Source: a virus
Lineage: Duplodnaviria > Heunggongvirae > Uroviricota > Caudoviricetes
Strand: one strand, 5' to 3'
DNA: 14,000 nucleotides
Virus record (IMG/VR): IMGVR_UViG_2778261687_000010
Coordinates: 1-14,000 of that record
Part shown: positions 1 to 14,000 of the stretch, one piece after another
Numbering within the stretch: position 1 is the stretch's first letter
How the letters are laid out: each line of letters begins with the position of its first letter
Translations under genes and position numbers: made by a program
The notes under the pieces: model-generated
The model's database searches: none
Told to the model about the DNA's origin: nothing
Seen by the model: only the letters and a program-made list of their open reading frames with translations

Positions 1-993
1 CTAGTCGGTGGACATTATGTGGACACTCCCACGCATAGGGTTAAATCGTATGGCATCAGTCAGATAATCTGGGGCGAAGTGAGCATATGTCATTGTTTGC
101 TCGATTGTTGTATGACCCAAAATACGCTGTAGCGTGATGATATTCCCGCCGTTGATCATGAAATGTGTTGCGAAGGTATGGCGTAAAACATGCAGTGCCT
201 GACCTTTCGGCAAGTCTGGCTTAATCTTACGAAGAACATCGCGAACTCGCTCATAGTTGGTATCGAACAATTTCCCCGATTTGCGTGTAAGGATGTAGTC
301 CGCGATTTCCTTCGATATCGGAACAGTACGAGCTGGGCCGGTTTTGGTCTTAACAAAGGTCACACGGTTACTTATCACGTTTTCAGCTTTAAGATTACTG
401 GCTTCACCCCATCGTGCTCCTGTATTCAGGCAAAGAACGACAACTCTGCGATCATCCCCTGTAAGGGCATTCAGCAAATGGTGGATCTCTTCTTCGGACA
501 GAAATGACATTTCTGTGTTTTCCAGACGTAACTTCTTCACGGCGCGAAACGGGTTTTCGTGATGAAATTCTTCCATATCTATCAGCAAACTGAACATGCT
601 GGACATGGAACAGAAATCCCTGTTTACCGTGCCAGCAGATACTCCACTATGAAGTCGTTCTGCACGATATTTCATCAGAAAGTTGCGGGTAAGCTCGTAC
701 ACTCTGGGTTCCGCCATTTCTCGGTTGATTTTTTCCAAACGCTTTTTATATGAGTCACCATAGTTGTGATTCTTTCCATGGTAGCTCCACCATAAAGAAA
801 TTAACTCGGATACAAGCCTCCTGTCTGCGGGTTTATCCTGCCATTCTTTATCGTGAAAGTTTGTCAGTACATACCGCTCGTATGCCTGTGCTTCCGCCTT
901 TCTGTCAAATTTGCGTCGAATCCTTCTTCCTGAGGTTCCGCGCGGTCTAACGTCCACTTCAAAACGACCATCATCAAGCTTCTTAATCGACAT
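1..993 (-). CDS. int: Tyrosine recombinase, P2 Int-like integrase
   Basis: ORF 1..1020 on the minus strand. The N-terminus from the internal ATG at 991-993 (MSIKKLDDGRFEVDVRPRG...RRIRRKFD) closely matches my recollection of the P2 Int N-terminus (MAIKKLDDGRYEVDIRP...). The C-terminal catalytic region carries HVLRHTFATH...GGNIITLQRILGH...YAHF, typical of the R..H..R..Y tyrosine recombinase signature. A GGAGGG Shine-Dalgarno sits about 8 nt upstream of the 993 start. The stop codon is at window position 1-3, so attL should lie just outside the window. Confidence 0.9.
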   Translation of the reverse strand: MSIKKLDDGRFEVDVRPRGTSGRRIRRKFDRKAEAQAYERYVLTNFHDKEWQDKPADRRLVSELISLWWSYHGKNHNYGDSYKKRLEKINREMAEPRVYELTRNFLMKYRAERLHSGVSAGTVNRDFCSMSSMFSLLIDMEEFHHENPFRAVKKLRLENTEMSFLSEEEIHHLLNALTGDDRRVVVLCLNTGARWGEASNLKAENVISNRVTFVKTKTGPARTVPISKEIADYILTRKSGKLFDTNYERVRDVLRKIKPDLPKGQALHVLRHTFATHFMINGGNIITLQRILGHTTIEQTMTYAHFAPDYLTDAIRFNPMRGSVHIMSTD

Positions 994-1059
994 AGCGAAG
1001 CCCTCCGATGTATGAATCATTATGTAAATTTTGCGCTAACGCATAGAAAAACCAGATGT

Positions 1060-1359
1060 TTAGCCAATTTTCCGGGTGGAACGGGATGATGTTATGTTGT
1101 CTTGCCCATCAGGGGAGAGAGACGGGGACACCTGCCCCGCAATTGGTGCCGTCTTATCTGTCATTAACCAGAGTGTATATTTTTCAAACATATGTACCTC
1201 TATAACACTTTCTAAGACTTCTGCACGAGCTGGCTGATGGCCAGTTTCGTACTTTTTTATTGTTCCAAGAGCTACCCCAGTAAGCTCTGAAAAATCTTTT
1301 TGAGTTAACCCTTCAGCTTTCCGGATCTGCCGGAGTTTCTCCGCATAATTTCTTGACAT
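1060..1359 (-). CDS. C: Immunity repressor, P2 C-like (99 aa)
   Basis: 99 aa, the same length as P2 C. The C-terminal half (KYTLWLMTDKTAPIAGQVSPSL...) matches remembered P2 C (KYTLWFMTNQIAPESGQIAP...). The N-terminal helix-turn-helix region reads LTQKDFSELTGVALGTIKKYETG. ATG at 1357-1359, divergent from cox. Confidence 0.85.
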   Translation of the reverse strand: MSRNYAEKLRQIRKAEGLTQKDFSELTGVALGTIKKYETGHQPARAEVLESVIEVHMFEKYTLWLMTDKTAPIAGQVSPSLSPDGQDNITSSRSTRKIG

Positions 1360-1467
1360 GGTTCTTGTATCGCAACTATTATTGGTTCTTACAAAAGAAC
1401 CTTGACAAAAGAACCCTAGAACGACTTAAAGCGCCCTAGGAACCCAAACTAACGAAGGATACCACAG
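1360..1467. promoter_or_regulatory. Divergent early promoter/operator region between C and cox
   Basis: 108 bp between divergent C and cox. Five copies of a GGTTCT/AGAACC half-site: inverted copies at 1360-1365 and 1384-1389, direct copies at 1396-1401, 1410-1415 and 1418-1422. These include an 11-bp direct repeat ACAAAAGAACC at 1391-1401 and 1405-1415. A consensus -35 TTGACA lies at 1402-1407 on the plus strand, overlapped by the repeats. An AAGGA RBS sits 9 nt before the cox ATG. Confidence 0.6.
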
Positions 1468-1749
1468 ATGAAGGAACCAGCAGAAAAGGCGCTTTCAGAG
1501 TTGGTGACCCCTGAGCTTTCTGCCGAATATATAGGCAAAACGCCTGCTGCAATTCGCAAAATGGCCACGGCTGGAAAACTGCCGGTAATCCGCATGAAAG
1601 ACCCTCTAAATCCATCAAAAAAAGGTGGGGAAATCTATATCCATCGGGGGGAATGGGATGCTTATGCCATTCATTTGGCTCAAATTGCCCCGCCTGAATG
1701 GCATGACTGGAAGAACCGTTTATTCACGAAAGATAAAAGTGCTCGTTAG
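1468..1749 (+). CDS. cox: Cox-like excisionase / transcriptional regulator
   Basis: 93 aa; IGKTPAAIRKMATAGKLPVIRMKDPLNPSKKGGEIYIHRGEW aligns with remembered P2 Cox (IGKSTGAVRRMIDKGKLPVIDMTDPQSASGRAGEYWVYLPAW). Position is divergent from C, as in P2. Confidence 0.8.
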   Translation: MKEPAEKALSELVTPELSAEYIGKTPAAIRKMATAGKLPVIRMKDPLNPSKKGGEIYIHRGEWDAYAIHLAQIAPPEWHDWKNRLFTKDKSAR

Positions 1750-1775
1750 TAAACTAAATATTATTGGGGATTATC

Positions 1776-2111
1776 ATGAAGACTAAATATGCCACGCTGA
1801 TTCGTAGTCTGTTGCAAAACTATCACGCTCAGGCAAAAACCATTGATAAAGAAACATTCTCTGTACATAGCGATGGCTTGCAGTTAATGGAATTAAACAT
1901 TCAGCTTGCAAAATGCCTTGAGGGTATAACCTCCACTGCTCGCTTTAATAATGATAGTGATGATTTTGAAGAACTGCACAAAATCACGCTTATGGTATTT
2001 GGCGGAAATATACCAACTGAAAATAACATTTCCGGTCTTATGTCGCTGGCTACCACAGCGTTAAAAAGTAATAACTCGCATCTTAAATCTGTTGCAGCTT
2101 CCCAACGTTAA
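1776..2111 (+). CDS. Hypothetical protein (early region)
   Basis: The ORF-track start at 1764 is TTG; the ATG at 1776 is preceded by GGGGA (1766-1770). No motif recognised. Stop at 2109-2111, 9 nt before the next gene. Confidence 0.5.
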   Translation: MKTKYATLIRSLLQNYHAQAKTIDKETFSVHSDGLQLMELNIQLAKCLEGITSTARFNNDSDDFEELHKITLMVFGGNIPTENNISGLMSLATTALKSNNSHLKSVAASQR

Positions 2112-2120
2112 GGAACCGAT

Positions 2121-2690
2121 ATGAAACATTTAATGATTGACCTTGAAACAATGGATAATAAACCGACTTCTGCGATTGCTTCTATCGGTGCTGTATTCTT
2201 TGACCCTGAAACTGGCGAAATGGGTGAACAGTTTTATCAACGTGTCAGCCTGGGCAGCTGTGTAGGCCACGGTCTCACTATGGGGTCAGAAACCGTATTA
2301 TGGTGGATGCGTCAGGATGCCGAAGCGCGTAGCGAGCTGCTTAATGACGATTGTCTGGACTTGCCTCTGACGTTAGCTAATCTGGAAGCTTTTATTACTG
2401 AGCATTCTGACCCATCTAAAGTACAGGTATGGGGGAATAGTGCAGCGTTCGACAATGTTATTTTACGTAATGCATCAGAGAAATGCGGGTTTGCCGATCC
2501 ACTTTGGTACTACTGGAATGACCGTGATGTAAGAACGGTTGTTGAACTGTCAAAAACACTTGGGCTGAATGTTCGTAATATTATTAAGTTTGATGGTGTT
2601 AAACATCACGCTTTATATGATGCCATTCATCAGGCTAAAGTTGTTTCTTATGTCTGGATGTATCTTGTAAAAATAGCCAGTGTGAAATAA
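2121..2690 (+). CDS. DEDDh-type 3'-5' exonuclease-like protein
   Basis: The N-terminal MIDLET motif has the acidic D-x-E pair of DnaQ-like exonucleases, and the C-terminal HHALYDAIH provides an H-x4-D motif. AAGGA RBS at 2110-2114. Confidence 0.6.
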   Translation: MKHLMIDLETMDNKPTSAIASIGAVFFDPETGEMGEQFYQRVSLGSCVGHGLTMGSETVLWWMRQDAEARSELLNDDCLDLPLTLANLEAFITEHSDPSKVQVWGNSAAFDNVILRNASEKCGFADPLWYYWNDRDVRTVVELSKTLGLNVRNIIKFDGVKHHALYDAIHQAKVVSYVWMYLVKIASVK

Positions 2691-2692
2691 CG

Positions 2693-2911
2693 ATGCTTAC
2701 AGTGACCTCTCATGCAAGTAAAAGTGTCATTCACAAGGCATTTTCAGTGCTGACAGAATATTACAACGGCAAAAAGGTATATCAGGTTATTAAGCCAAAA
2801 CATTATTTCTCTGTTCATGTTTCTTATCGCTGGCGATTACTGAGTAAGGATAAGGGCAGAAGCTGGGAACTAATGACACATGAGCGATATAACAAGCAGT
2901 ACAGAATATAG
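2693..2911 (+). CDS. Hypothetical small protein (72 aa)
   Basis: ATG at 2693, 2 nt after the previous stop (possible coupling). Weak RBS and no recognisable motif. Confidence 0.35.
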   Translation: MLTVTSHASKSVIHKAFSVLTEYYNGKKVYQVIKPKHYFSVHVSYRWRLLSKDKGRSWELMTHERYNKQYRI

Positions 2912-2950
2912 TTTTTGCCTTTTACCCATTATTTCACATCTGGATTATTT

Positions 2951-5608
2951 ATGAACGAAACGATACAACAGGACGTTGTGCGCCGTCTTGTTCGGGACTT
3001 TGAATTTAAAGAGCGGGATAAGTATTTGCAGCAGGGCGTTTGCCCTGCCTGTCGTAAGCGCGAATTATTTACCAGCATAGAAAAGCCCTGGATTCTGAAA
3101 TGTGGCCGTGAAAATAACTGCGCACATCAGATTGTCGTGAAAGAGCTGTATCCGGATATCTTTGAAGACTGGTCAAAACGTTACCAGACCACAGAAGATA
3201 ACCCCCATGCAGTAGCTGAGGCGTATCTGCGCGAGGCCAGAGGGCTGGAGACTGAGCCATTAAAAGGCTGTTTTACCCAGGGTGCATTCGTGAAAGATGG
3301 CATGGGGTCGGCAACGGTCAGATTTTCGCTGTCATGCGGTGCAACATGGGAGCGCATCATTGACCAGCCGCAGCGCTTCGGTAAGCAGAAAGCCAACATC
3401 AGGGGAAGCTATGTCGGTCACTGGTGGGTTCCTCCCTTTATCAACCTGCAGGAAGTGAACGAAATCTGGATCACTGAGGGAATCTTCAACGCGCTGAGTC
3501 TGTGCCAGGTAGGGTTACCTGCAGTTGCCACACTGAGCAGTAACAACTATCCGCTGGCCGCACTGGATACGCTGGCCAAAGAACTGGGTGAAAAACCACG
3601 TCCACGTCTTGTATGGGCGTTTGACGGCGATAAAGCCGGCACAAAGCACACACTGGCGTTCGCTGCCCGTAGTGATGCTGCAGGATGGAAAACTCGTGCC
3701 GCGCAGCCGGTGAAATCATCGGCATCGCTGGACTGGAATGACCTGTTGTTACGTAACCGGTTCAGTAAGTCGGACATTAAAAATTATCGCTACTATGGCG
3801 ATCTCCTTCTGGCAAAAAGCCCGACTGAGAAAGCGCTGCTCATGCATCAGCATAACGAGTGGCACTCGTTCTACTTTGAGCATAACTCCCGCATGTACTG
3901 GTTTGAGCTGGATCTGGACAGGTATATGCGAGCCTATGAGCGCATCACCAATACCGGTACCGAAGTGGTGATGGAGTGGGAGGCCAAAGAACGGGCGGTT
4001 AAAGAGTCAGGCGGCGTGACCGAAATAGCTAACTGCTGGCTGACGCCGCTTTACTTTCAGCGGTCTGAACCTACGGACGAGTCCTGGTATTACGTGAAAG
4101 TCAGTATGCCTAACCGGCCAGCCGTGAAAGATACTTTCACGGCTAATCAGCTCACCAGCTCCGCCGAGTTCAAAAAGCGTCTGCTGCACATCGCCAAAGG
4201 GGCGGTGTACACAGGCAGCACCAAACAGCTGGATAAGTTCATCCAGATGCGCCTCCCTGAAATCAAAGAGGTAAAGACGCAGAATTTCATCGGCTATAAC
4301 AAGGATTATGCCGCCTGGTTGTTTAACCGCGTGGCCGTTTGCGATGGCCGGCTGTATGAGATGAACGACGAGGATTACTTCGAAATCAACAGTGCCAGCG
4401 TTAAGAGCCTGAGCCTCACGCCGGCGCTGGATCTGAATCCGAAGCTGAACGAGTTTACTACGGGTTGGGTAGACGATATCTGGACGGCATTTGGTGAAAA
4501 AGGGTATGTGGCGCTGGCGTTCTGGCTGGGGTCGCTGTTTGCCGAACAAATCCGCGAGCGTGACAAGTCATTTCCGTTTCTGGAAATCGTGGGCGAGCCG
4601 GGGACAGGTAAATCCACGCTGATAGAATTTCTCTGGAAGCTCGCCGGCCGTGAGGAATACGAAGGGTTTGACCCATCTAAATCTACCGCCGCCGCGCGTG
4701 GCCGTAACTTCGCCCAGGTCGGTAATCTGCCGGTTGTGCTGATTGAGGGCGACCGTACTACCGATAACGCCAAGCAACGCGCTTTTGACTGGGACGAGCT
4801 GAAATCACTGTATAACGGTCGTGCCTCCCGCGCCGTGGGTATCAAATCGAACAATAACGAGACGTATGAGCCGCCGTTCAGGGGAAGTATTGTGATAGCG
4901 CAAAATGCCGACACAGACGGCAGCAAGGCGTTTCTGGAGCGTATCATCCACATCTATACCGACAAGCGCGGCCAGTCCATTCAGACGCGCCACGCTGCAG
5001 AACGACTTGAACAACTCCCCGTTAGCCAGGTATCCGGATTCACATTACTGGCCACCATGCGCGAAAAAGAAATCATGCAGACGTTCGGCAGGGGGTACGA
5101 GCGAGCTAGGAATGAGCTGGAGTCTAATAGCAGTATTCGCCATATCCGTATTGCAAAGAATCACGCGCAGCTTGTGGGCTTGCTGGAGGCGCTTGCACTT
5201 GTTGTACCGGTGCCGGTTGAACGTATAGAAAAAACGCGTGAAGCCATCACCGCGCTGGCCGTTGAACGTTGTCAGGCACTTAAAAAGGATCATCCTCTGG
5301 TGCAGGAGTTCTGGGAGCTGTTTGATTACTTGGATGAACTGGCACCTTATGGCATCAATCATTCATCAGATGAAAATGAAATCGCGGTTAATTTCAATCA
5401 CATGGAAGAGGTCGCCGCAGCACACCGGCAGCGTATTCCGTTCACGTTAACGGAAATTAAAAAGCTGCTTAAAAACGGCAATGAGCGCCGGTTTATCAGA
5501 CAAAGCACCACGCGCAGCGCGGTAAGTGAGCGCCATAATCGTGGTAAAGGGGATATGCAACGGATGCCGGAAACATTCCGCTGCTGGATATTTGGCCGGG
5601 AAAAGTAA
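2951..5608 (+). CDS. Replicative primase-helicase (zinc ribbon + TOPRIM primase fused to Walker-A NTPase)
   Basis: The ORF-track start at 2915 is TTG; the first ATG is at 2951 (MNETIQQ...). Zinc-ribbon CPACRKRE...CGRENNCAHQ near the N-terminus. TOPRIM-like WITEGIFNALS and AFDGDKAG (DxD). Walker A EIVGEPGTGKSTLIEF, with a candidate Walker B VVLIEGD. The architecture resembles P4 alpha-type primase-helicases and is not a rolling-circle initiator like P2 A. Confidence 0.8.
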   Translation: MNETIQQDVVRRLVRDFEFKERDKYLQQGVCPACRKRELFTSIEKPWILKCGRENNCAHQIVVKELYPDIFEDWSKRYQTTEDNPHAVAEAYLREARGLETEPLKGCFTQGAFVKDGMGSATVRFSLSCGATWERIIDQPQRFGKQKANIRGSYVGHWWVPPFINLQEVNEIWITEGIFNALSLCQVGLPAVATLSSNNYPLAALDTLAKELGEKPRPRLVWAFDGDKAGTKHTLAFAARSDAAGWKTRAAQPVKSSASLDWNDLLLRNRFSKSDIKNYRYYGDLLLAKSPTEKALLMHQHNEWHSFYFEHNSRMYWFELDLDRYMRAYERITNTGTEVVMEWEAKERAVKESGGVTEIANCWLTPLYFQRSEPTDESWYYVKVSMPNRPAVKDTFTANQLTSSAEFKKRLLHIAKGAVYTGSTKQLDKFIQMRLPEIKEVKTQNFIGYNKDYAAWLFNRVAVCDGRLYEMNDEDYFEINSASVKSLSLTPALDLNPKLNEFTTGWVDDIWTAFGEKGYVALAFWLGSLFAEQIRERDKSFPFLEIVGEPGTGKSTLIEFLWKLAGREEYEGFDPSKSTAAARGRNFAQVGNLPVVLIEGDRTTDNAKQRAFDWDELKSLYNGRASRAVGIKSNNNETYEPPFRGSIVIAQNADTDGSKAFLERIIHIYTDKRGQSIQTRHAAERLEQLPVSQVSGFTLLATMREKEIMQTFGRGYERARNELESNSSIRHIRIAKNHAQLVGLLEALALVVPVPVERIEKTREAITALAVERCQALKKDHPLVQEFWELFDYLDELAPYGINHSSDENEIAVNFNHMEEVAAAHRQRIPFTLTEIKKLLKNGNERRFIRQSTTRSAVSERHNRGKGDMQRMPETFRCWIFGREK

Positions 5609-5654
5609 CGGTTCACTAGTGCCTAACTTTATTGTTAGGGGAAGGAGCGAACAT

Positions 5655-5700
5655 TGAAGCAATAGGGGCGTTATCTTTATTGCTTCATTCTTATTTTAAA
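5655..5700 (+). terminator. Hairpin plus T-tract after the primase gene (candidate intrinsic terminator)
   Basis: 10-bp inverted repeat TGAAGCAATA (5655-5664) / TATTGCTTCA (5678-5687) followed by TTCTTATTTT. The stop codon of the convergent minus-strand gene (5677-5679) lies inside the hairpin. A second short hairpin, CCTAAC-N6-GTTAGG, is at 5622-5639. Confidence 0.45.
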
Positions 5701-6396
5701 GTTCTTTAATTTACCGTACAGAGTATCCCGCAGGGAAAACGAAGGAACCCAATCAAAACCAGTACGCCAGGGGCGTGGACTGCCATGAAAGCAAACAACC
5801 GCCACATTATCAGGGACTTTCCCTGTCGCAGCCTCAGAGGCTAAATTTGCATTGAAGCCAATCATCGAGGGGGTGGCGATGTCACATTTATAACTAACAA
5901 TTGAGCCAGGAATGATATCCTGCCATAGGGCTGGTTTTATGATGCTACCGAGAAATCCCTGATCACCCCATTTGTCTTCAGTCTGACAATTGCGCATAAT
6001 TTTCTCAGGATCAATAATGAATTGTTCCCAAATCGTCTTTTTAATCGACGCCGGAATCATCATTATTGATGAGTTTACTCTTGAGGCATGGTTAAACTCC
6101 CGAAGCATTGTAAATTTCTTCGCACCTTCGAAAATATGAATATCTCCCGTGACCACAACATCTACGTCAAAATAGAGTAAATCTTGGTCTCCAAGGACTG
6201 GGTGATTAGGATTAAATAGTTCAATTTTAGACCACCATCCCGGCCAGTTATAAAGCAAAGGGGTTGTGTTAACTCCAGGAATATTATCTGCATCGGTTAA
6301 ACATATAGATGGAATATCTTTGAACTGACGATGAAGCCATTGGGCGTGTTTAGGGGTAAACTCTTTACTACATTTAAGAACTGAGACTATTAACAT
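5677..6396 (-). CDS. Cargo protein, putative GT-A-fold (DxD) nucleotide-sugar transferase-like; function unknown
   Basis: 239 aa with an ATG at 6394-6396 and a strong GGGAGG Shine-Dalgarno about 8 nt upstream. Visibly more AT-rich than the flanking prophage genes. Contains LLYFDVDVVVTGDI (hydrophobic strand plus DxD) and C-terminal FHGSPRPW, reminiscent of GT8-type glycosyltransferase motifs. No obvious transmembrane segments. Bounded by terminator-like hairpins on both sides. Confidence 0.75.
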   Translation of the reverse strand: MLIVSVLKCSKEFTPKHAQWLHRQFKDIPSICLTDADNIPGVNTTPLLYNWPGWWSKIELFNPNHPVLGDQDLLYFDVDVVVTGDIHIFEGAKKFTMLREFNHASRVNSSIMMIPASIKKTIWEQFIIDPEKIMRNCQTEDKWGDQGFLGSIIKPALWQDIIPGSIVSYKCDIATPSMIGFNANLASEAATGKVPDNVAVVCFHGSPRPWRTGFDWVPSFSLRDTLYGKLKNFKIRMKQ

Positions 6397-6500
6397 AAGA
6401 TGCCTCCCAAAATTTGGAAAGATAATATCATGTTTAGGAGGGGGGGACTATTAATCACTTGGTCATTCATCGACGTTGATAGATGGGAATCTGTTACATC

Positions 6501-6536
6501 TCAGAAAATAAAAGCACCGGTAGCGGTGCTTTTTTC
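6501..6536 (-). terminator. Intrinsic terminator downstream of the ogr-like gene
   Basis: Hairpin AGCACCG-GTAG-CGGTGCT at 6513-6530, flanked by T-runs on both strands: TTTTTT at 6531-6536 on the plus strand, and TTTATTTTCTGA on the minus strand (complement of 6501-6512). It lies directly after the ogr stop (6536-6538) and separates ogr from the 5677-6396 cargo gene. Confidence 0.55.
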
Positions 6537-6865
6537 TATGCGGCAGCAGTGCCGTCCTGACTCAGAAACTTTAACATCAGCTGCTTTTGCTGGATATCAA
6601 GGCTGTTACAGATAGTGGCGATCAACGCATCGCTGGATTTGGCGCTGGGGCTGATGGTATGTGAGAATGTCATATTCATCACAAAAGTGTGACCACATTC
6701 AACATCGGTACACGCGCAATATAAATCCGACAGTTCCTTGTGTTTTCGGGCTGTTTTTTTGATAACAGCCCTTGCCTCACATACCGGACAGTAAACCTTC
6801 ATTACCCGCATATCCATCGCTCCGGAAGTTGGAAAACGATGATATTTTAGCCTTTTTGCGAACAT
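6536..6865 (-). CDS. ogr: Ogr/Delta-family zinc-finger late transcription activator
   Basis: CPVCEARAVIKK...YCACTDVECGHTFV fits the Ogr/Delta C-x2-C...C-x4-C zinc-finger pattern (P2 Ogr: CPLCQ...YHQCQNVNCSATFI). The longest ORF starts at the ATG at 6863-6865, overlapping the portal stop as TAATG. Internal ATGs at about 6809-6817 (MDMRVMKVYCP...) would give a more Ogr-like N-terminus. Confidence 0.75.
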   Translation of the reverse strand: MFAKRLKYHRFPTSGAMDMRVMKVYCPVCEARAVIKKTARKHKELSDLYCACTDVECGHTFVMNMTFSHTISPSAKSSDALIATICNSLDIQQKQLMLKFLSQDGTAAA

Positions 6866-7884
6866 TAATCACCTTCCAGCTCACTGTCTTTCAGGAAATT
6901 AAGGTACAGGTGGGGCGGTACATCACTTTCCTGTTCCACTGCGGCGGTAAACATGCGCTGAATGGGCAAAATTTCTGCTTTGCGGTAGGTTTTGGACGCT
7001 TTCTCAACATCTCCCATTACTGCGCCGTTCGTCGGGATAATCCCCGCCAGTCCTGCCGGGAATCGATGCGCGGTCAGTACGTCCTGGGCGCTGATGCTCT
7101 TGATGTTCTGAAACTCATCTTTGGCGCTGATATCCCCAATCGGGATAAATTTGATGCCGTCCGGATCGCCTTTGGGGATGTTCACAAACATGGTGCTGAA
7201 GTTCCCGATCCCCTTTGACTGCTCCAGCTTCTGAATAATTTCTTCTTCCACTTCATCAGTCATATTTGGGTCGTTACAGTAGATCATGCCACCTGTGTGT
7301 CCGCCGTTATGGTAGTAACGCCGACGAAAAATTGTTGCCTCACCGTTAAGCAGGGCAGAATGGATACCGCTGATATAATCCGGCAGACCATAAATCGCCT
7401 GTTGCGGATCGTACTGCCTGAGAAAAATAATATCTTCAGGCGGATAAATCATCGGTTCACCCTGCTGCAGTACCACAAACTCCCCGGTCTTACGCTGGCG
7501 GGTATAGAGTGCCGGCAGCGGGTACAGTGCCACCACATCCCCCCAGCCGTTACGCACTTTCAGAATGGCCACATCACCGAAGGTCAGCCAGTCGAACACG
7601 GCTGCACCAAGCTGTTCATGCGTCAGTCCGCCGTCTTTATAGTTTGCCGTCACCATATTGCGACGGGCATACAGCACACCGCCGTGCTGCGCGTTCAGGT
7701 TCACCAGTTGCGCCAGCGCCAGCCGGTCAATCGGGAGCGTCCAGTGTTCCGCTTCATTGTCATACCAGACGTCTGTGTAGTTTGTGCCGGTCGTCAGAAT
7801 GGGTTCCGGTTTACCCAGGGTAATAAGGCTCATATGGCGCGGCTTGCTGGCGGTGCGGCGTTCCCTGTATTTCCGTTTTTTCAT
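6865..7884 (-). CDS. Q: Portal protein, P2 gpQ-like
   Basis: 339 aa, with a size and position typical of P2 Q (immediately downstream of the terminase large subunit on the same strand). AGGGA RBS upstream; the start overlaps the stop of the upstream gene as ATGA. Confidence 0.75.
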   Translation of the reverse strand: MKKRKYRERRTASKPRHMSLITLGKPEPILTTGTNYTDVWYDNEAEHWTLPIDRLALAQLVNLNAQHGGVLYARRNMVTANYKDGGLTHEQLGAAVFDWLTFGDVAILKVRNGWGDVVALYPLPALYTRQRKTGEFVVLQQGEPMIYPPEDIIFLRQYDPQQAIYGLPDYISGIHSALLNGEATIFRRRYYHNGGHTGGMIYCNDPNMTDEVEEEIIQKLEQSKGIGNFSTMFVNIPKGDPDGIKFIPIGDISAKDEFQNIKSISAQDVLTAHRFPAGLAGIIPTNGAVMGDVEKASKTYRKAEILPIQRMFTAAVEQESDVPPHLYLNFLKDSELEGD

Positions 7885-8855
7885 GCTGCTTTCCCTAAGT
7901 TACCCCAGCGTGATTTTCGCTGGTTTTCAAAGTTTAATGGCTCGTTGTCAATGGCATGGGCGATAGCCCAGAAACTGTCTGCGTGTCCTGTTTCTGCTGT
8001 GCGATCGGCGACGAAAGTCATTGCGTTGCCGCTGGCCGTGGACGTACGGCGGATGGTCATAAAGCTGGCGGCGATTTCGGTCTTCTCCTTATCCCATTCC
8101 ACGCGGCCGTCTTCGATAACGTCGATCATCTTCATCACCAGACGATTTTTGGTCTCGACGCCGTAGCGGATCGCCACTGCCTGACGCATGGCAAAGTGCT
8201 GAACGTCTTCAAAGACACCGCTACCCAGTCCAGTGATATCAATGCCGATGTAGGTCATGTTGTACTGGCCAAACAGCTTCTTAATCTGTGCCGCCTGCCA
8301 CTTCCAGTTCATCCCCTGCCAGTGGAATACACGCAGTACCCGAAATTTTTCGCCGGCCACTATCGGCGGCGCGATGATCACGAAGGTGGAGGTGTCTCCG
8401 CTGCGAGCCGGGTCATAACCCGCCCACACTTCACGGTTGCCGAACGGCCGGGGCAGGTTTTCGTCATGATCCTCCCAGATATCCGGATCTACACAGCAGC
8501 GTTCTACGTGAGAGAACGAAAATACGCTGTCCTTGCTGTCCACGAACACGCACATATACAGCATGTTGAAAGTGTCGCGGTTGTAGCGGTTGCGCAGCTT
8601 CCCGATGCTGGCGAGATTAAACCCGCCTGCGATCGCGTCTTCCATTGTGATGATGTAGCGCCACTGCCCATCAGGACATAACCGTCCACCGTCGCGCAGC
8701 TCCTTCTCCGTGGGAAATTGTACGCGCGCGCGTTTTTTGTCACCGCGCTTCCATTCTTCACCAGTCCAGAACGGGTACGCCTGGTGCGTTTTGCTGCTGG
8801 GGGTGGAAAAGTAGGTGGTTCGCCATTTGTCGTGTGTGGCCATCGCGCTGGCCAC
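7881..8855 (-). pseudogene. P: Terminase large subunit (P2 gpP-like), 5'-truncated: nuclease domain only
   Basis: The ORF begins with GTG at 8853-8855 and the frame is open only back to about 8885. The C-terminal half carries nuclease-domain features (WAGYDPARSGDTSTFVIIA, GIDITGLGSG, HADSFWA). No Walker A (GxxxxGK[ST]) anywhere. At about 324 aa it is far shorter than typical large terminases, so the ATPase half is missing. Confidence 0.7.
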
Positions 8856-8879
8856 TTCGTTTAATTTTGCAAAGTTGGG

Positions 8880-9100
8880 TATCTGCTATTGAAACCCGTC
8901 TGGGTGAGGCGGAAGAAGCGGTATCTGATGTGCAGGACGATGTGGACACCGTGAAGGAAGTAGTGGACACCGAAGATTTTGCGCGTCTGGTGGGGAACCT
9001 GCCGGAGCTGGTGAAAAACTTCAGCAAGCTGAATAACAAAGTTACTCAACTGCCGGACAAGAAATTCAGCAAGGGCAAAAAAGGCTTCAATTTCCTGTAA
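8880..9100 (+). pseudogene. O: Capsid scaffold (P2 gpO-like) 3' fragment
   Basis: Short acidic, coiled-coil-like ORF tail (AIETRLGEAEEAVSDVQDDVDTVKEVVDTEDF...KKFSKGKKGFNFL) ending 34 nt before the capsid gene, as O precedes N in P2. Only about 70 codons are plausibly scaffold. The assignment rests on position and composition. Confidence 0.4.
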
Positions 9101-9134
9101 GGGATAACACTACTTTTCTTTAAGGAAAAAGAAT

Positions 9135-10163
9135 ATGCAATTAAATGCGAAAGCCCGTGAGTTTCTGCTTCAGTATCACACCGGGCTGCGTGAATCCTAC
9201 GGGGCGACCGACAGCGAACGCTGGTTTGCACTCACCGACCCCAAAGAAACCCAGCTGCGCAATGCGCTGATGGAGCAGTCTGATTTCCTGAATCTGATCA
9301 CCGTTGCCGATGTCGATCAGCTGCAGGGGCAGGTGGTTCCGGTTGGCAGCTCTGGCCTGTATACCGGGCGTGTACTGGATGGCCGCTTCCGTAAGAAAGT
9401 GGGCGTGAGTGGTAATGATTACAGTCTGGTCGAGACCGACTCATGCGCCGCACTCACCTGGCAGTTGCTTTCTGTCTGGGCGAACGCCGGCGATGAAAAC
9501 GAGTTTTTCCAGCGTGTTCAGGAGTTCACCAATCAGGCGTTTGCGCTGGATATGCTGCGTATCGGCTTTAACGGTACCAAAGTGGCTGAGACCACGAACG
9601 CGGAAACCAACCCGAACGGCGAGGATGTGAACAAGGGCTGGCATCAGATCGTCAAAGAGTGGAAGGACGGCCAGCAGATCATCACTGATGCGGTGGTGCT
9701 TGACGGTGACGGGAAAGGCGATTACGTGTCGCTGGATGCAATGGCCTCCGACCTTATCAACGCCAAAATCCCGGCACAGTACCGTAATGATCCACGCCTG
9801 GTGGTTCTTGTCGGCGCTGATCTGGTCGCGGCGGAGTCGTTCCGTCTGTATCAGAAAGCAGACAAACCCACGGAGAAGATCGCCGCGCAACTGCTGTCTG
9901 ACAGCATCGCCGGCCGCACGGCTTACGTACCGCCGTTTATGCCAGGCAAACGCATGATTGTTACGACACTGCCAAACCTGCACATCTACACCCAGCGCGG
10001 CACGCGTCAGCGTAAAGCGGAGTTTGTGGAAGACCGTAAACAGTACGAAAACAAATACCTGCGTAACGAAGGTTATGCGGTTGAGTATCCGGAACTGTAC
10101 GCCGCGTTTGATGAAAGTGCGGTAGCTATCGGGGCACCTGTCGCGCCTCCGGCAGGCGAGTAA
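9135..10163 (+). CDS. N: Major capsid protein, P2 gpN-like
   Basis: 342 aa, with several blocks matching remembered P2 gpN: FLNLITVADV vs FLTRINIVPV, IGFNGTKVAETTNAETNP vs AGFNGVKRAETSDRSSNP, DPRLVVLVGADLVAAESF vs DPDLVVIVGRQLLADKYF. AAGGAAAAAG RBS upstream. Confidence 0.85.
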   Translation: MQLNAKAREFLLQYHTGLRESYGATDSERWFALTDPKETQLRNALMEQSDFLNLITVADVDQLQGQVVPVGSSGLYTGRVLDGRFRKKVGVSGNDYSLVETDSCAALTWQLLSVWANAGDENEFFQRVQEFTNQAFALDMLRIGFNGTKVAETTNAETNPNGEDVNKGWHQIVKEWKDGQQIITDAVVLDGDGKGDYVSLDAMASDLINAKIPAQYRNDPRLVVLVGADLVAAESFRLYQKADKPTEKIAAQLLSDSIAGRTAYVPPFMPGKRMIVTTLPNLHIYTQRGTRQRKAEFVEDRKQYENKYLRNEGYAVEYPELYAAFDESAVAIGAPVAPPAGE

Positions 10164-10173
10164 GGGGGATTTA

Positions 10174-10743
10174 ATGCAACTGTCACCGGCACAGCGCCAC
10201 AGCGCACGAATTGAAGCGGAGCGGTTACTGCGACAGCAGCAGTCTCTGGACACGGAAACCAGCCTGCATATTCAGATTGTCGCGCTGGAGAAAGATGTCG
10301 CCGCAGCTGCAGCGATTGAAAGCCGCGCTGAGCGAATGGAATTTAAGCGTGATGTGCTGTTACCGCGCTGGATGCCAACCGCGCAATCCTGGCTGGAAGG
10401 TGACAGTGTGCAACAGAATCCTGTTTTTGCCTGGTGTGTCGTCTGGCTGTTTGATACAGGCCAGTTTGACCAGGCGCTGGACTGGGCGGATGTGGCAATC
10501 CAGCGGGGGCAGGAAACCCCGGCCGCGTTCGGCAGTACGTTCCCGGTGTTTGTGGCGGATACGGTGTTGTCCTGGGCGGAAGCGGAAGCCGTACAGGGGC
10601 ATGATGTGGAGCCGTATTTTGGCCGTACGCTGGAAAACGTGACGCAGCACTGGAATGTGTATGAGGTCATTAAGGCCAAATACGGGGATGGCCATAAAAG
10701 GCGCGTTATCGCCGGCTATCGAAATGTACGACGCGCTGAATGA
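10174..10743 (+). pseudogene. M: Terminase small/endonuclease subunit (P2 gpM-like), probably 3'-truncated
   Basis: N-terminal MQLSPAQRHSARIEA, LLPRWMPT and WLFDTGQFDQALDWADVAI resemble P2 gpM (SPAQRH..., LLPFWLPW, WRLDTGDIAGALEIARYAL). At 189 aa it is shorter than the roughly 247 aa I recall for P2 gpM. Its 3' end overlaps, out of frame, an ORF with tape-measure character. AAGGGGGA RBS upstream. Confidence 0.65.
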
Positions 10744-11419
10744 TGCCGCCGCAAAAGGGATTGATAATCAGGCATTAAAGACAGTACAGCGTGACGCGCT
10801 CCGGTTCAGCATGACCTACGGTGCCAGCGCGGTGGAGTTCGTCAAATCCACAGAGAACATTAACGCTTCCATTGCCGGCCTTACCGCCAGCGAGCTGCCG
10901 AAAGTGACGAAGGTCGCTAATACGCTGGCATTTGCCCTGAAATCCACATCCGCCGACACGGCGGAGTTCATGGGGCAGATGTACGGTAACTTTTCCGCCG
11001 ATGCGGCGCGGCTGGGTAAAGTCCAGTTCGCTGAGCAACTGGCGGGGAAAATGGTGTATATGCGCAAGGTCTTCGGTACCGAAATGGGTACCATCAAAGA
11101 CCTGATGGAAGGGGCGCGAGGTGTCGGGACTAACTACGGCGTCGGGCTGGATGAACAGCTGGCGGTGCTGGGACAGCTAAATCGTACGCTGGGAACAGAA
11201 GCCAGTAGCGCTTACGAAGGCTTCATGACCGGCGCGATGGAGGGAGCTAAAAAGCTGGGGCTGTCCTTCACGGACTCCACCGGCAAAATGCTGTCCATGC
11301 CTGAAATGCTGATCAAGCTGCAGGGCAAATACGGCAAAAGCCTGGAAGGGAACCTGAAAGCCCAGGCGGAGCTGGATGCGGCATTTGGTGACAGTTCAGC
11401 GGTGATAAAACACCTGTAG
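10655..11419 (+). pseudogene. T: Tail tape measure protein fragment (core region)
   Basis: The translation has tape-measure core character: Ala/Gly/Leu-rich with repeated GxxxA and LGxxA blocks (e.g. LAVLGQLNRTLGTEASSAYEGFMTGAMEGAKKLG). It is only about 250 aa, starts inside the M ORF in another frame, and no tail genes precede it. Confidence 0.6.
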
Positions 11420-11454
11420 CCGGGTGTTATCTGCTGATTAAACACTGGGATGAT

Positions 11455-11901
11455 GTGAAAGCGGCGGTGATGAATACGGCAGCGTTTACCGCCGTGGCTG
11501 GTGTGGTGGAATGGCTTGCCGGCGTGTTTTCCGCTGCGTGGCAATGGATCACGGACGGCTGGAACAGCTTTATTGCGCTGCTGACCGGGTTTTCACCGTC
11601 ACAGGCGTTAAGCGGCATGGCCAGCGGGATTGTTTCCCTGTTTGATAACGTCTGGCAGACCATCAAAGGCGGGTTCCTGAAATCGTGGAACTGGATTGTC
11701 GGAAAACTCAATAAAATTCCGGGCGTCGATATTTCACTGGCGAACGAATCTCAACCGGCACTGACAACGAATACCAGAACATTATCGCCTGATTTCTCAA
11801 CCAGCCCGCGTCATGCGGGCTTTATCGCACCCACCAGACCTCACCAGACGCATTCTGAGCGCCGACAGTATCTACACCCGCTCCAATCCCAACTTAATTA
11901 G
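11455..11901 (+). pseudogene. T: Tail tape measure protein fragment (second piece, different frame)
   Basis: W-rich repeats typical of tape-measure C-terminal regions (AAWQWITDGWNSF..., VWQTIKGGFLKSWNWIVGKL). The frame differs from the 10655-11419 piece, and the last 40 or so codons look like out-of-frame read-through. Confidence 0.45.
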
Positions 11902-11976
11902 CTTTAAAAGCACAGCAAGGCGCTGATGCAGCCTGCCACGACGAAATAACGGCGGAAGTGACGAAAACGGCGCTAC

Positions 11977-12000
11977 ACCGCACCCGCCTGCGGTTTTCGT
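11977..12000 (+). terminator. Candidate intrinsic terminator
   Basis: ACCGCA-CCCGCC-TGCGGT hairpin (6-bp GC-rich stem) at 11977-11994 followed by TTTCGTGTT. Confidence 0.35.
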
Positions 12001-12452
12001 GTTGAGAATGATTTCAGTTTTTCTGGGGGTACAAAACACATCGCCAGACTGCGCCAGCGCTGGGGCTTTGGCGGTAGTTCACCGACTGAAATATGTGAAA
12101 CAGATTTCAAGGATTACAGTTTTTGTGCAATTACCGGCCGTGGGTGAAAAATGACGGTGCCGGACTTCATGCGGGTTTAACAGTGATTACGTGACTTTTA
12201 ACGTAACGGCCGCAGCGGGATCACGTAAGCGGGAGAAAGTGACAAGGCCTTATTTGATGTGTTCTGGCGCGGAATGACCGTGAGATGCGGAACTGAAATA
12301 CTTTGCACAGCCTGAACTATAGCCATACCTACATTAACGTACTGCACCAATGCTCAAATCACTAACAGAGATATATACAAAACCACCAACAAATCAGGGT
12401 GATTTCTGACCACTTCTAATTTTTTCAAAAATTTAGGGGGAGCATCGGAAAA

Positions 12453-12718
12453 CCGTCACAAACATCACAGATTTAAAAAATATCATTTATCTATATGATA
12501 TGTATAAGTAAATTCATATATTGAAAACCATCACAAGAGCATCACAAGAGCATCACAGTGTGACGGCCTTAAAACATCACAACTCTGTTTTATAACTCGC
12601 TGAATTTATAGGGTGTGACGGTTTACGTTACGTTTTGTGATGGTTTTACCATCACAACATTTATTCATGATAATCAGATGGTTAATGGTTTTTTTTGTGG
12701 GGCGTGATGGTTGTGACG
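12453..12718. repeat. Iteron-like array: about 12 copies of C(C/A)(G/A)TCACA(A/G) in both orientations flanking an AT-rich tract
   Basis: Direct copies at 12453-12460, 12463-12470, 12529-12536, 12540-12547, 12551-12558, 12575-12582 and 12649-12656. Inverted copies (TGTGA(C/T)GG) at 12559-12566, 12614-12621, 12636-12643, 12703-12710 and 12712-12718. Includes a tandem 11-mer CATCACAAGAG x2 (12529-12550) and a perfect palindrome TGTGATGG-TTTTA-CCATCACA (12636-12656). An AT-rich stretch at 12471-12528 sits between the first and second repeat clusters. Confidence 0.7.
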
Positions 12719-12785
12719 TTTTTCCGATGGGCAACTTAAAAATGCTAAGTAAGACGAAACAAAATTTTAACAGCGTGGTGGGATA

Positions 12786-12805
12786 GCGCCCCTGTTCAGG
12801 GGCGC
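12786..12805. terminator. GC-rich hairpin just downstream of the acyltransferase gene (possible terminator)
   Basis: GCGCCCCTG-TT-CAGGGGCGC perfect inverted repeat beginning 8 nt past the minus-strand stop codon (12813-12815). There is no strong U-tract on either side, so its terminator function is uncertain. Confidence 0.3.
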
Positions 12806-12812
12806 AAATGTT

Positions 12813-14000
12813 CTACTTTGCAATCTGAAGTTGAGGACGCTTATGTATGATGCTGCGACTTTCGACATATTTGTACATAACCGGCGCAATGATACCTGCC
12901 GCAATAATTGCACAAATCTGCCAAACATAGTTTCCTGCACTATATAAATAATGTTTAGATACTGTTTGAGTTATCCCATGAACTAAATAAAGGGAGAAAC
13001 TGCAGGTTCCCAGCATAGTTACAGGCAGGGATGTAAGTAAGCCAAAGTAATCACATCCGCACTTTATTGTGTAGAAAACAATAAACATATAAAGCGGAGT
13101 TGTAGTGTTGTAAGCATGTCGAGTAAAATATATGGCTGCGAATAATAATAAAGCGCAGATTATATCTGATGGGCGCTTGTTGCTCTTGATTGTAGCGACA
13201 AGAAATCCTGCAAGGAAATACATTATATAACTCAGGTGTTGTTCATTGTTTATAAAATACTTGAATAATAAAACACATCCCATTAAAAAAATAACAAATG
13301 CTTCTTTATATTTGATGTTTTTCATTATCAGATATAAAAATGGAATTGCAAGGTATAGGCGTAATTCCCAGACTAACGTCCAGAACACACCAGATGTGGC
13401 AATCTGGAGCGATACACCATTGATGTTAGCGCCAGGCGGATTGAATATAAATGGTAATGAAGATATAAACCATTGCGATACTGGAGTATGGTTATCCGGA
13501 TTCATGATAAATGTTGCAATATATATTATAAATAAAAGAACAACTACAGGTGGGTAAATTCGCATGAATCGTGAAATTGCAAAGCTTTTTACATCGAAGG
13601 AGTCCGCTAGTGCCTTTTTGAAAAATAAAAAAGCAGACAGCATAAAAAAGACCCCAACAGATAACTCTCCTGTTAGATATATGGCGCGTTTTACATTGCT
13701 GAGTGTAATGTACTCAAGAGACCAGTATATATCTGATTCTCCTCCGGCTCTCCAGTAAAGATGGAATACAGCAACCATTGCTGCACAAATTCCACGTAAG
13801 CCATCAAGCGAGGCGTATTTATGTTTTGCAGGTGTAATACCCAATAACTTAGAAGTGACATATATTGTCGCTATAAGTATGCTGAGATAAAGTCCGTATT
13901 CAAAAATATATTTCATTATAATAATTACGCTTGGTGTTTTTATGGATGTTAACATTTTTTGCGGATGTCGGGAATGCTCTGTGGACTTATTGACACGCAT
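12813..14000 (-). CDS. Acyltransferase-3 family integral membrane protein (O-antigen/polysaccharide O-acetyltransferase-like)
   Basis: SLDGLRGICAAMVAVFHL matches the N-terminal signature of acyltransferase-3 / OafA / Oac-type enzymes (LDGLRG...A..VV..H). The remainder is highly hydrophobic with multiple predicted transmembrane segments. The region is very AT-rich. The true start is uncertain: the ORF is open to the window edge, and in homologues the LDGLRG motif lies about 10-35 residues from the N-terminus, so an internal start is plausible. Confidence 0.8.
   Translation of the reverse strand: MRVNKSTEHSRHPQKMLTSIKTPSVIIIMKYIFEYGLYLSILIATIYVTSKLLGITPAKHKYASLDGLRGICAAMVAVFHLYWRAGGESDIYWSLEYITLSNVKRAIYLTGELSVGVFFMLSAFLFFKKALADSFDVKSFAISRFMRIYPPVVVLLFIIYIATFIMNPDNHTPVSQWFISSLPFIFNPPGANINGVSLQIATSGVFWTLVWELRLYLAIPFLYLIMKNIKYKEAFVIFLMGCVLLFKYFINNEQHLSYIMYFLAGFLVATIKSNKRPSDIICALLLFAAIYFTRHAYNTTTPLYMFIVFYTIKCGCDYFGLLTSLPVTMLGTCSFSLYLVHGITQTVSKHYLYSAGNYVWQICAIIAAGIIAPVMYKYVESRSIIHKRPQLQIAK

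Follow-up and report, generated by a model that had tools for sequence, protein, structure and literature searches.

Acetylation of surface polysaccharides by phage-borne enzymes is already well known, and phage acetylases consisting only of an acyltransferase-3 (AT3) domain include Oac (Sf6), OacB (Sf101), OacD (SfII) and Oac of PhiV10 (PMC9558356). The genes for the Sf6 enzyme (OacA) and for that of the E. coli O157 phage PhiV10 lie next to int/attP, cause seroconversion and exclude the phage that carries them (PMC9558356). OacB acts on the O-antigen as 3/4-O-acetylase of RhaIII and as 6-O-acetylase of GlcNAc (PMC8952252). Mutagenesis identified R47, H58, W71, F98, R116, R119 and S146 as critical residues of OacB. 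Three motifs have been defined for AT3 enzymes, namely R/K-X10-H in TMH1, FFxISG in TMH2 and RXXR at the cytoplasmic end of TMH3 (PMC7448272). In OafA, H25 within the R/K-X10-H motif is essential, F41 and G46 were reported to be invariant across 31 characterised enzymes, and the G46A exchange was tolerated; in Oac, G53 was critical (PMC7448272). A pore model for the use of acetyl-CoA by AT3 enzymes has been put forward (PMC9833829). Furthermore, NeaT of E. coli CFT073 is encoded by a very AT-rich PF01757 gene in phi-b0847, a P2-like prophage (PMC3573123), and prophage acetyltransferases have been reported to be common in Klebsiella (PMC13123978).

Here we analysed a gene at the right end of a 14,000-nt stretch of viral DNA (positions 1 to 14,000 of IMG/VR record IMGVR_UViG_2778261687_000010), referred to below as the window. 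A homology-based annotation of the gene already exists in a RefSeq phage genome. When phage genomes were searched with tblastn, Escherichia phage ESSI2_ev239 (NC_049392.1; Peduoviridae, Evevirus; 29.2 kb) was found to encode a protein, gp35 (YP_009877480.1), with 96.5% amino acid identity over the full length, which represents the free-phage version of the gene and whose name, O-acetyltransferase, is a homology annotation only. Infant gut viromes were the source of this phage (PMC6969025); the paper makes no mention of the acetyltransferase gene.

Position of the gene within a P2-like prophage

The window starts with a tyrosine integrase gene (1-1020), followed by a repressor gene, a Cox-like gene, an exonuclease gene, a Toprim/D5-type primase-helicase gene (2915-5608) and an ogr/Delta regulator, after which come portal, terminase, capsid and tape-measure genes of P2 type in fragmentary form. 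The same DNA is present in the complete genome NZ_AP023286.1, where the window end corresponds to position 21701 of locus L001. Alignment to this genome showed that the window equals an intact 28.9-kb prophage minus four internal deletions. The intact element has the order int, C, cox, replication, ogr, portal/terminase, capsid, lysis, tail, acyltransferase, raiA, with about 1 kb of non-coding DNA between the last tail gene and the acyltransferase gene.

A 22-bp direct repeat, AAAACGCGCCCGAAGG(T/C)GCGTT, was found between pheL and int and again between the acyltransferase gene and raiA, both copies being located just outside the window. This att core repeat is the terminator hairpin of raiA. 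The acyltransferase gene lies inside attL/attR, about 180 bp from attR, and int lies at the attL end. The empty site was predicted by joining the outer flanks over one copy of the repeat, and the resulting 559-bp junction gave matches at up to 100% identity in E. coli genomes. With a single match over at least 80% of the junction taken as an uninterrupted site, 5273 of 5426 complete E. coli genomes carried it uninterrupted.

The gene was present in 22 of the 5426 genomes, always at this locus, and the same 22 were the only ones with prophage matches of at least 99% identity. The prophage copies were about 99.9% identical to each other. Some carriers had the intact 28.9-kb element; shorter architectures, of which there were at least six, included one with IS100 in int; the window's own deletion pattern was not found among the complete E. 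coli genomes searched. Membership of a polysaccharide locus conserved on the chromosome of all related genomes, which the preliminary description had named as a refuting result, was ruled out by the narrow distribution together with a distance of about 620 kb from the galF-gnd O-antigen locus.

The ESSI2_ev239 gene resembles the one in the window in phage type, slot, orientation and downstream iteron cluster. It is located directly downstream of int in the order int-attP-gene, next to attP/int in the temperate phage; in the prophage the gene lies at the end opposite int. A second AT-rich moron of the window (5677-6396) is absent from ESSI2_ev239. The content of the slot varied between phages. 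In the sister phage ESSI2_ev015 it holds a gene for a 208-aa 'serine acetyltransferase' together with three small genes; in Cronobacter phage ESSI-2 no gene is annotated at this position. An orthologue with 80% identity in Citrobacter amalonaticus belongs to the same phage type and lies at the corresponding end, with other chromosomal neighbours. A Klebsiella homologue (35% identity) lies in a lambda-like prophage, behind its tail-spike gene, and was found with three different right flanks. The order tail gene, oac, attP/int is also shared with Shigella phage Sf101, where tailspike, oacB and int follow each other. Serotype-converting cargo classically shows this layout.

The preliminary description had left it undecided whether the gene was lysogenic-conversion cargo or a separate island. 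Its position inside the att boundaries and its carriage in a phage genome support the former, that is, phage cargo located terminally in a P2-like E. coli prophage undergoing decay, and the latter was rejected.

Reading frame and flanking elements

As the preliminary description had noted, the gene is strikingly AT-rich compared to the prophage core. Its GC content is 0.364 (GC3 0.332), and values of 0.35-0.39 were obtained over 12250-14000 compared to 0.52-0.57 over 7250-12000, where the phage structural genes are located. The minus-strand open reading frame comprises 395 codons; it opens with an ATG at 14000 and closes with the TAG at 12813-12815. It had been suspected that the gene may extend past the window edge; however, in the parent genome NZ_AP023286.1 the frame is closed by a TGA 14 codons before the ATG at 14000, so it does not run off.

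The start codon had been considered ambiguous, and extending the window was recommended. The choice was settled in favour of the ATG at 13916 and against that at 14000. As for the ATG at 14000, only 3 nt separate it in the parent genome from a terminator-like hairpin with a 9-bp stem, which leaves no room for a promoter. Among 13 orthologues with the N-terminal helix, including proteins from Citrobacter, Kosakonia, Enterobacter and Klebsiella, 11 start no more than one residue from the Met aligned to 13916, and in the alignment most orthologous proteins lack the 28-residue extension upstream of it. The counterpart of 13917-14000 in ESSI2_ev239 and in the Citrobacter relative is divergent and contains indels of -2 and +4 nt that break the frame, and conservation among E. 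coli, ESSI2_ev239 and Citrobacter picks up again exactly at ATGAAATAT. Because of these orthologue starts, the frame-breaking indels and a conserved promoter-like element upstream (Table 1), the ATG at 13916 almost certainly marks the true start, and the protein then begins MKYIFEYG. The product is annotated by PGAP with 367 aa (WP_162756338.1) in one genome and with 395 aa in other genomes; the present analysis corrects this inconsistent database annotation, in which the longer form stands alongside what is almost certainly the real 367-aa protein.

Table 1. Coordinates of the acyltransferase gene and its flanking elements in the window
Feature	Position	Strand	Remarks
Extended -10-like element TGTTAACAT (TGTTAATAT in relatives), candidate promoter	13946..13954	-	30 nt upstream of start codon
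5' leader and promoter region	13917..14000	-	most likely non-coding, though in frame with the gene
AT3-only membrane acyltransferase CDS, 367 aa	12813..13916	-	start ATG 13916-13914 (almost certain), stop TAG 12815-12813
GC-rich hairpin GCGCCCCTG-TTC/GAA-CAGGGGCGC, possible transcript 3' end or stabiliser	12786..12805	-	7 nt past stop codon, read from sequence

The -10-like element, TGTTAA(C/T)AT, is located within a block conserved among E. coli, ESSI2_ev239 and Citrobacter, surrounded by divergent upstream DNA. A generic sigma-70 scan of the region upstream of the gene gave 8 sites compared to 6.8 expected and did not list the element; it is thus the cross-genus conservation that suggests it as a candidate promoter of the gene. 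The GC-rich hairpin downstream of the stop codon possibly forms the 3' end of the transcript or stabilises it. It was omitted by the terminator scan because it has no T-run. Dam/OxyR-type phase variation of the kind known for oafB was rejected, since the oafB-type GATC signature is missing and no GATC sites are present in the 180 bp upstream of the gene.

Enzyme family, motifs and nearest relatives

The gene encodes an intact AT3 membrane protein of the Oac/OafA superfamily, confirming the assignment in the preliminary description. The protein matched Pfam PF01757 (Acyl_transf_3) with an E value of 5.9e-29 and 101.6 bits (cut-off 31) over profile positions 2-322 of 326, and the family search gave no placement in an unrelated transporter family. 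This single Pfam domain covers residues 35-346 in the numbering of the 367-aa protein (63-374 of the 395-aa query). A match to PHROG 3333, 'O-acetyltransferase', was also obtained (E 1.2e-40). The sole NCBIfam match was a 15-bit fragment to SucT, and Foldseek against viral models returned one unnamed 637-aa match and nothing useful.

The LDGLRG...VFH signature quoted earlier was found in the translation as SLDGLRGICAAMVAVFH. In an alignment of 45 homologues (367-aa numbering), the invariant residues included R41-X10-H52, F90-F91-x-x-S94, R116-x-x-R119, W179, E184, S308 and Y310. The R/K-X10-H motif of the AT3 family is thus represented by R41 and H52, and RXXR by R116-F-M-R119, which aligns to R116/R119 of OacB. 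In the FFxISG region, F90-F91-M-L-S94 is followed by Ala95. The Gly position is Ala also in the nearest orthologues, whereas more distant homologues carry Gly there.

An AF2 model built on the 45-sequence alignment (pLDDT 92.2, pTM 0.90) contained an N-terminal helix and ten further membrane helices, 11 helices in total, with a ten-helix membrane core of the transmembrane acyltransferase fold. The loop charges agree with an N-out, C-in topology, the one predicted for OacB, and this answers the call for a topology prediction made earlier. The model stops after the last membrane helix, and no SGNH match, C-terminal extension or SGNH-type neighbour was found, which places the protein with the AT3-only enzymes Oac and OacB and not with OafA/OafB. 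The dN/dS ratio was 0.20 compared to phage ESSI2_ev239 and 0.05 compared to Citrobacter (dS saturated), indicating purifying selection on the gene lineage.

The best characterised relative is OacB, with 27% identity over 307 residues (E 1e-20). Both proteins are AT3-only with 11 predicted TM helices, the N-terminus outside and the C-terminus inside. Six of the seven critical residues of OacB (R47, H58, W71, F98, R116 and R119) are identical here, whereas S146 is not conserved and aligns to P145 in a variable loop. The low identity indicates a different subfamily and not an orthologue. The carriers also differ, Sf101 being a P22-like podovirus with an O-antigen-cleaving tailspike and the carrier here a P2-type myovirus. 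The Oac proteins of Sf6 and PhiV10 have the R-X10-H and RXXR motifs in common with the present protein and, with Ala95 here in place of the glycine, FFxISG; no match to either was obtained by tblastn against phage genomes at E <=1e-5, which makes them more distant than OacB. A further difference is that phages Sf6 and PhiV10 recognise the O-antigen directly.

NeaT is similarly a phyletically rare AT3 moron of a P2-like prophage transcribed against the neighbouring tail genes, but it is located in a different slot, between the tail fibre gene G and the sheath gene FI. With a best BLASTP local alignment of E 1.8, NeaT was rejected as an orthologue. OafA/OafB (GtrC family II) of Salmonella share the AT3 domain, R-X10-H, RXXR and the proposed acetyl-CoA pore mechanism. 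In contrast, their AT3 part is fused via an 11th helix to a periplasmic SGNH transferase domain, and an identity of this type was rejected for the present protein.

The gene defines an uncharacterised AT3-only subfamily at prophage ends, found with P2-type phage in E. coli and Citrobacter and, at greater distance, with lambda-type phage in Klebsiella; an isolated copy is present in Salmonella. The last of these, in Salmonella 6,14:a:1,7, is located among chromosomal genes with long unannotated flanks.

Acceptor polysaccharide and retention of the gene

The reading we favour, which we consider fairly probable, is that the protein is a stand-alone inner-membrane acyltransferase, carried as cargo by an Evevirus, expressed in the lysogen and acetylating an envelope glycan, likely the O-antigen. 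The gene is an optional moron of ESSI-2-like/Evevirus P2-type temperate phages and occupies a cargo slot bounded by attP and the tail module's end; integration at the raiA terminator puts it at the prophage's extreme right, oriented inward. The hairpin would shield it from raiA read-through, so that expression in the lysogen would most likely depend on its own promoter. If it works like characterised AT3 enzymes, the protein may form a membrane pore admitting cytoplasmic acetyl-CoA, the presumed donor, which would be held by the TM1 arginine and the RXXR arginines with its thioester presented to the TM1 histidine. The residues required by the pore model are all present in the protein. The acetyl group would then be passed at the periplasmic face to a sugar hydroxyl of the envelope glycan, most likely a Wzx/Wzy-made O-antigen, either Und-PP-linked or polymerised. 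Such acetylation would alter the serological epitope and the phage-receptor properties of the cell, including, we infer, adsorption. Since the carrier has P2-type tail fibres and no O-antigen-cleaving tailspike, the self-exclusion logic of Sf6 need not apply. Other points against the favoured reading are the identity of only 27% to the closest characterised enzyme, Ala95 at the position of the glycine reported as invariant (OafA G46, Oac G53), and the failure of the generic scan to list the candidate promoter.

The O-antigen loci of four carriers, 2018-18.25PC, NT1F10, STK78-E and HZ13, were compared. Strain 2018-18.25PC has a fucose-type cluster 78% identical to that of O41, and this cluster was present at >=99% identity in only four genomes, of which the other three are not among the listed gene carriers. 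NT1F10, which represents a clone of about ten pig isolates, is O5, STK78-E has the O22 cluster and HZ13 the O81 cluster. All four carriers have a Wzx/Wzy-type O-antigen with gnu upstream of galF, which implies GalNAc-initiated O-units. A gene with 99.4-100% identity was thus found with four O-antigen clusters (O41-like, O5, O22 and O81). The gene product probably acetylates a surface sugar polymer. With one near-identical enzyme in four serogroups, the O-antigen as acceptor is a best guess held at moderate confidence; four different repeat units are awkward for a repeat-unit-specific enzyme. The spread over serogroups possibly reflects tolerance for the acceptor, a shared sugar or non-O-antigen glycan, or O-antigen switching that came later than gene decay.

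The same enzyme, carried as the same phage cargo, might act on a glycan common to all hosts instead of the O-antigen repeat unit, for example the LPS core, enterobacterial common antigen (ECA), colanic acid/group 4 capsule, osmoregulated periplasmic glucans or the HexNAc that many O-units share at their reducing end. We regard this as a serious possibility, albeit an unlikely one. P2-type phages generally adsorb via tail fibres to the LPS core, which counts in its favour, as do the four O-antigen clusters accompanying an essentially identical gene and the presence of gnu upstream of galF in all four carriers. Moreover, WecH (ECA) and OpgC (glucans) are known AT3-only enzymes with such acceptors (PMC9558356), and the Klebsiella prophage acetyltransferases have been discussed as capsule modifiers (PMC13123978). 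However, OacB, as the nearest characterised homologue, and the best PHROG match both point to the O-antigen, and with prophage copies about 99.9% identical, O-antigen switching may simply be of later date than gene decay. Slightly less likely again is a combination of a shared target (reducing-end GalNAc/GlcNAc, LPS core or ECA) with domestication, in which the host lineage would retain the gene for masking its surface or for defence against phages. It would picture the rest of the prophage being deleted and the O-antigen locus being swapped around the kept gene.

The gene might also be a neutral passenger, no longer used and without effect on the host surface, which is intact because the prophage is young. 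The prophage is decaying, with four internal deletions in the window and other deletions or IS100 elsewhere, the near identity of the copies leaves little time for point mutations, and the O-antigen of the host may not match the specificity of the enzyme. On the other hand, the full gene is kept in all 22 prophage-bearing genomes despite several independent deletion architectures, the dN/dS values of 0.05-0.2 indicate purifying selection in the lineage, and the promoter-like block upstream is conserved across genera, so that we consider a passenger improbable. The retention of the gene through the prophage deletions, whatever their pattern, is suggestive of selection, but weakly so, because the gene is small and lies at the end of the element.

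That the gene belongs to a separate non-phage island abutting the prophage remnant, as the abrupt GC fall (36% compared to 55%) and the non-coding kilobase next to the last tail gene might suggest, is hardly credible, since gene and non-coding stretch both lie within the attL/attR direct repeat, the empty site is precise in 5273 genomes, a packaged phage genome has the same gene and the same non-coding iteron cluster, and the Citrobacter orthologue accompanies the same phage type at a different chromosomal site.

Phage-borne acetylation of polysaccharides alters serotype, vaccine epitopes and phage susceptibility. The persistence of this gene through prophage decay, together with its occurrence in four O-serogroups, makes it a cheap test case for distinguishing broad acceptor specificity from a young passenger.

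Attachment core and adjacent hairpin

The attachment core of the prophage coincides with the intrinsic terminator hairpin of raiA. At attR this terminator is regenerated after integration, while attL carries a core copy with one mismatch beside the pheL promoter. GTCCAC repeats, which may be arm sites of the integrase, were found on either side of the core in both arms and also in relatives. A hairpin with a T-rich tail lies at an equivalent position in E. coli, phage ESSI2_ev239 and the Citrobacter relative, between attP/attR and the promoter region of the acyltransferase. Since the structure was kept in all three genomes while the sequence was different in each, the hairpin is suggested to be an insulating terminator.

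Coordinates of the features described in this part
Feature	Sequence	Position	Remark
Attachment core copies	L002	10209-10230	just beyond window end
	L001 (intact prophage)	21800-21821	just beyond window end
Hairpin and T-rich tail	L001 (E. coli)	21705-21727	
	L003 (ESSI2_ev239)	about 26970-27000	
	L004 (Citrobacter)	about 9905-9935	
CRTCACA cluster	window	12454-12718	AT-rich non-coding DNA immediately downstream of acyltransferase
	L003 (ESSI2_ev239)	28388-28652	
Second AT-rich gene	window	5677-6396	minus strand, 239 aa, GC about 0.38-0.43
Deletion junctions	window	8879-8881	
	window	10681-10683	
	window	11418	
	window	11772-11775	
Acetyltransferase gene	L016 (ESSI2_ev015)	8697-9323	208 aa
Acyltransferase homologue	L005 (Salmonella)	10001-11050	52% identical

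Heptamer cluster downstream of the acyltransferase

The heptamer CRTCACA occurs 14 times in the window, a number reached in none of 200 shuffles, and 11 of these copies lie within 265 bp, in both orientations. Within the cluster, the 11-bp tandem CATCACAAGAG was present in three copies in the window versus four in the pig-isolate clone represented by NT1F10. The same cluster was found in ESSI2_ev239 and was absent from the Citrobacter relative. The cluster looks like a set of iterons; it may be the origin for the window's Toprim/D5-type primase-helicase, or else a packaging site.

Internal deletions and a second AT-rich gene

Compared with the intact 28.9-kb prophage, the window has four internal deletions of about 1.5, 5.4, 0.55 and 7.35 kb, and the flanking matches overlap by 1-4 bp at each junction. 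Across 5426 complete E. coli genomes this exact pattern was not found, though several of them carry other deletion patterns.

The second AT-rich gene is placed between the replication gene and ogr/portal, at "moron position 1" of P2; ESSI2_ev239 has two small hypothetical genes in its place. Its product matched PHROG 1962 "glycosyltransferase" (E 6e-81), and no match was obtained in Pfam, NCBIfam or PDB sequence searches. It may be a second cargo gene that modifies the cell surface.

Cargo slot, homologues and O-antigen loci of carriers

In the sister phage ESSI2_ev015, the same int-proximal cargo slot holds an acetyltransferase gene of soluble type, annotated as serine acetyltransferase. As it differs in type from the AT3 acyltransferase, one slot has recruited two unrelated kinds of acetyltransferase. 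A homologue of the acyltransferase was observed in Salmonella enterica 6,14:a:1,7, isolated between chromosomal genes with flanks of about 0.9 kb and about 2.9 kb without called genes; this copy is possibly all that is left of a prophage.

Four E. coli carriers, whose acyltransferase genes are 99.4-100% identical, have four different Wzx/Wzy O-antigen clusters (loci L013, L014, L015 and L018): O5, O22, O81 and an O41-like cluster at 78% identity, possibly an unnamed O type. Some of the his-operon proteins beside the O-antigen locus were identical between two of the four. Together with the differing clusters, this suggests that the O-antigen was replaced within a related lineage.
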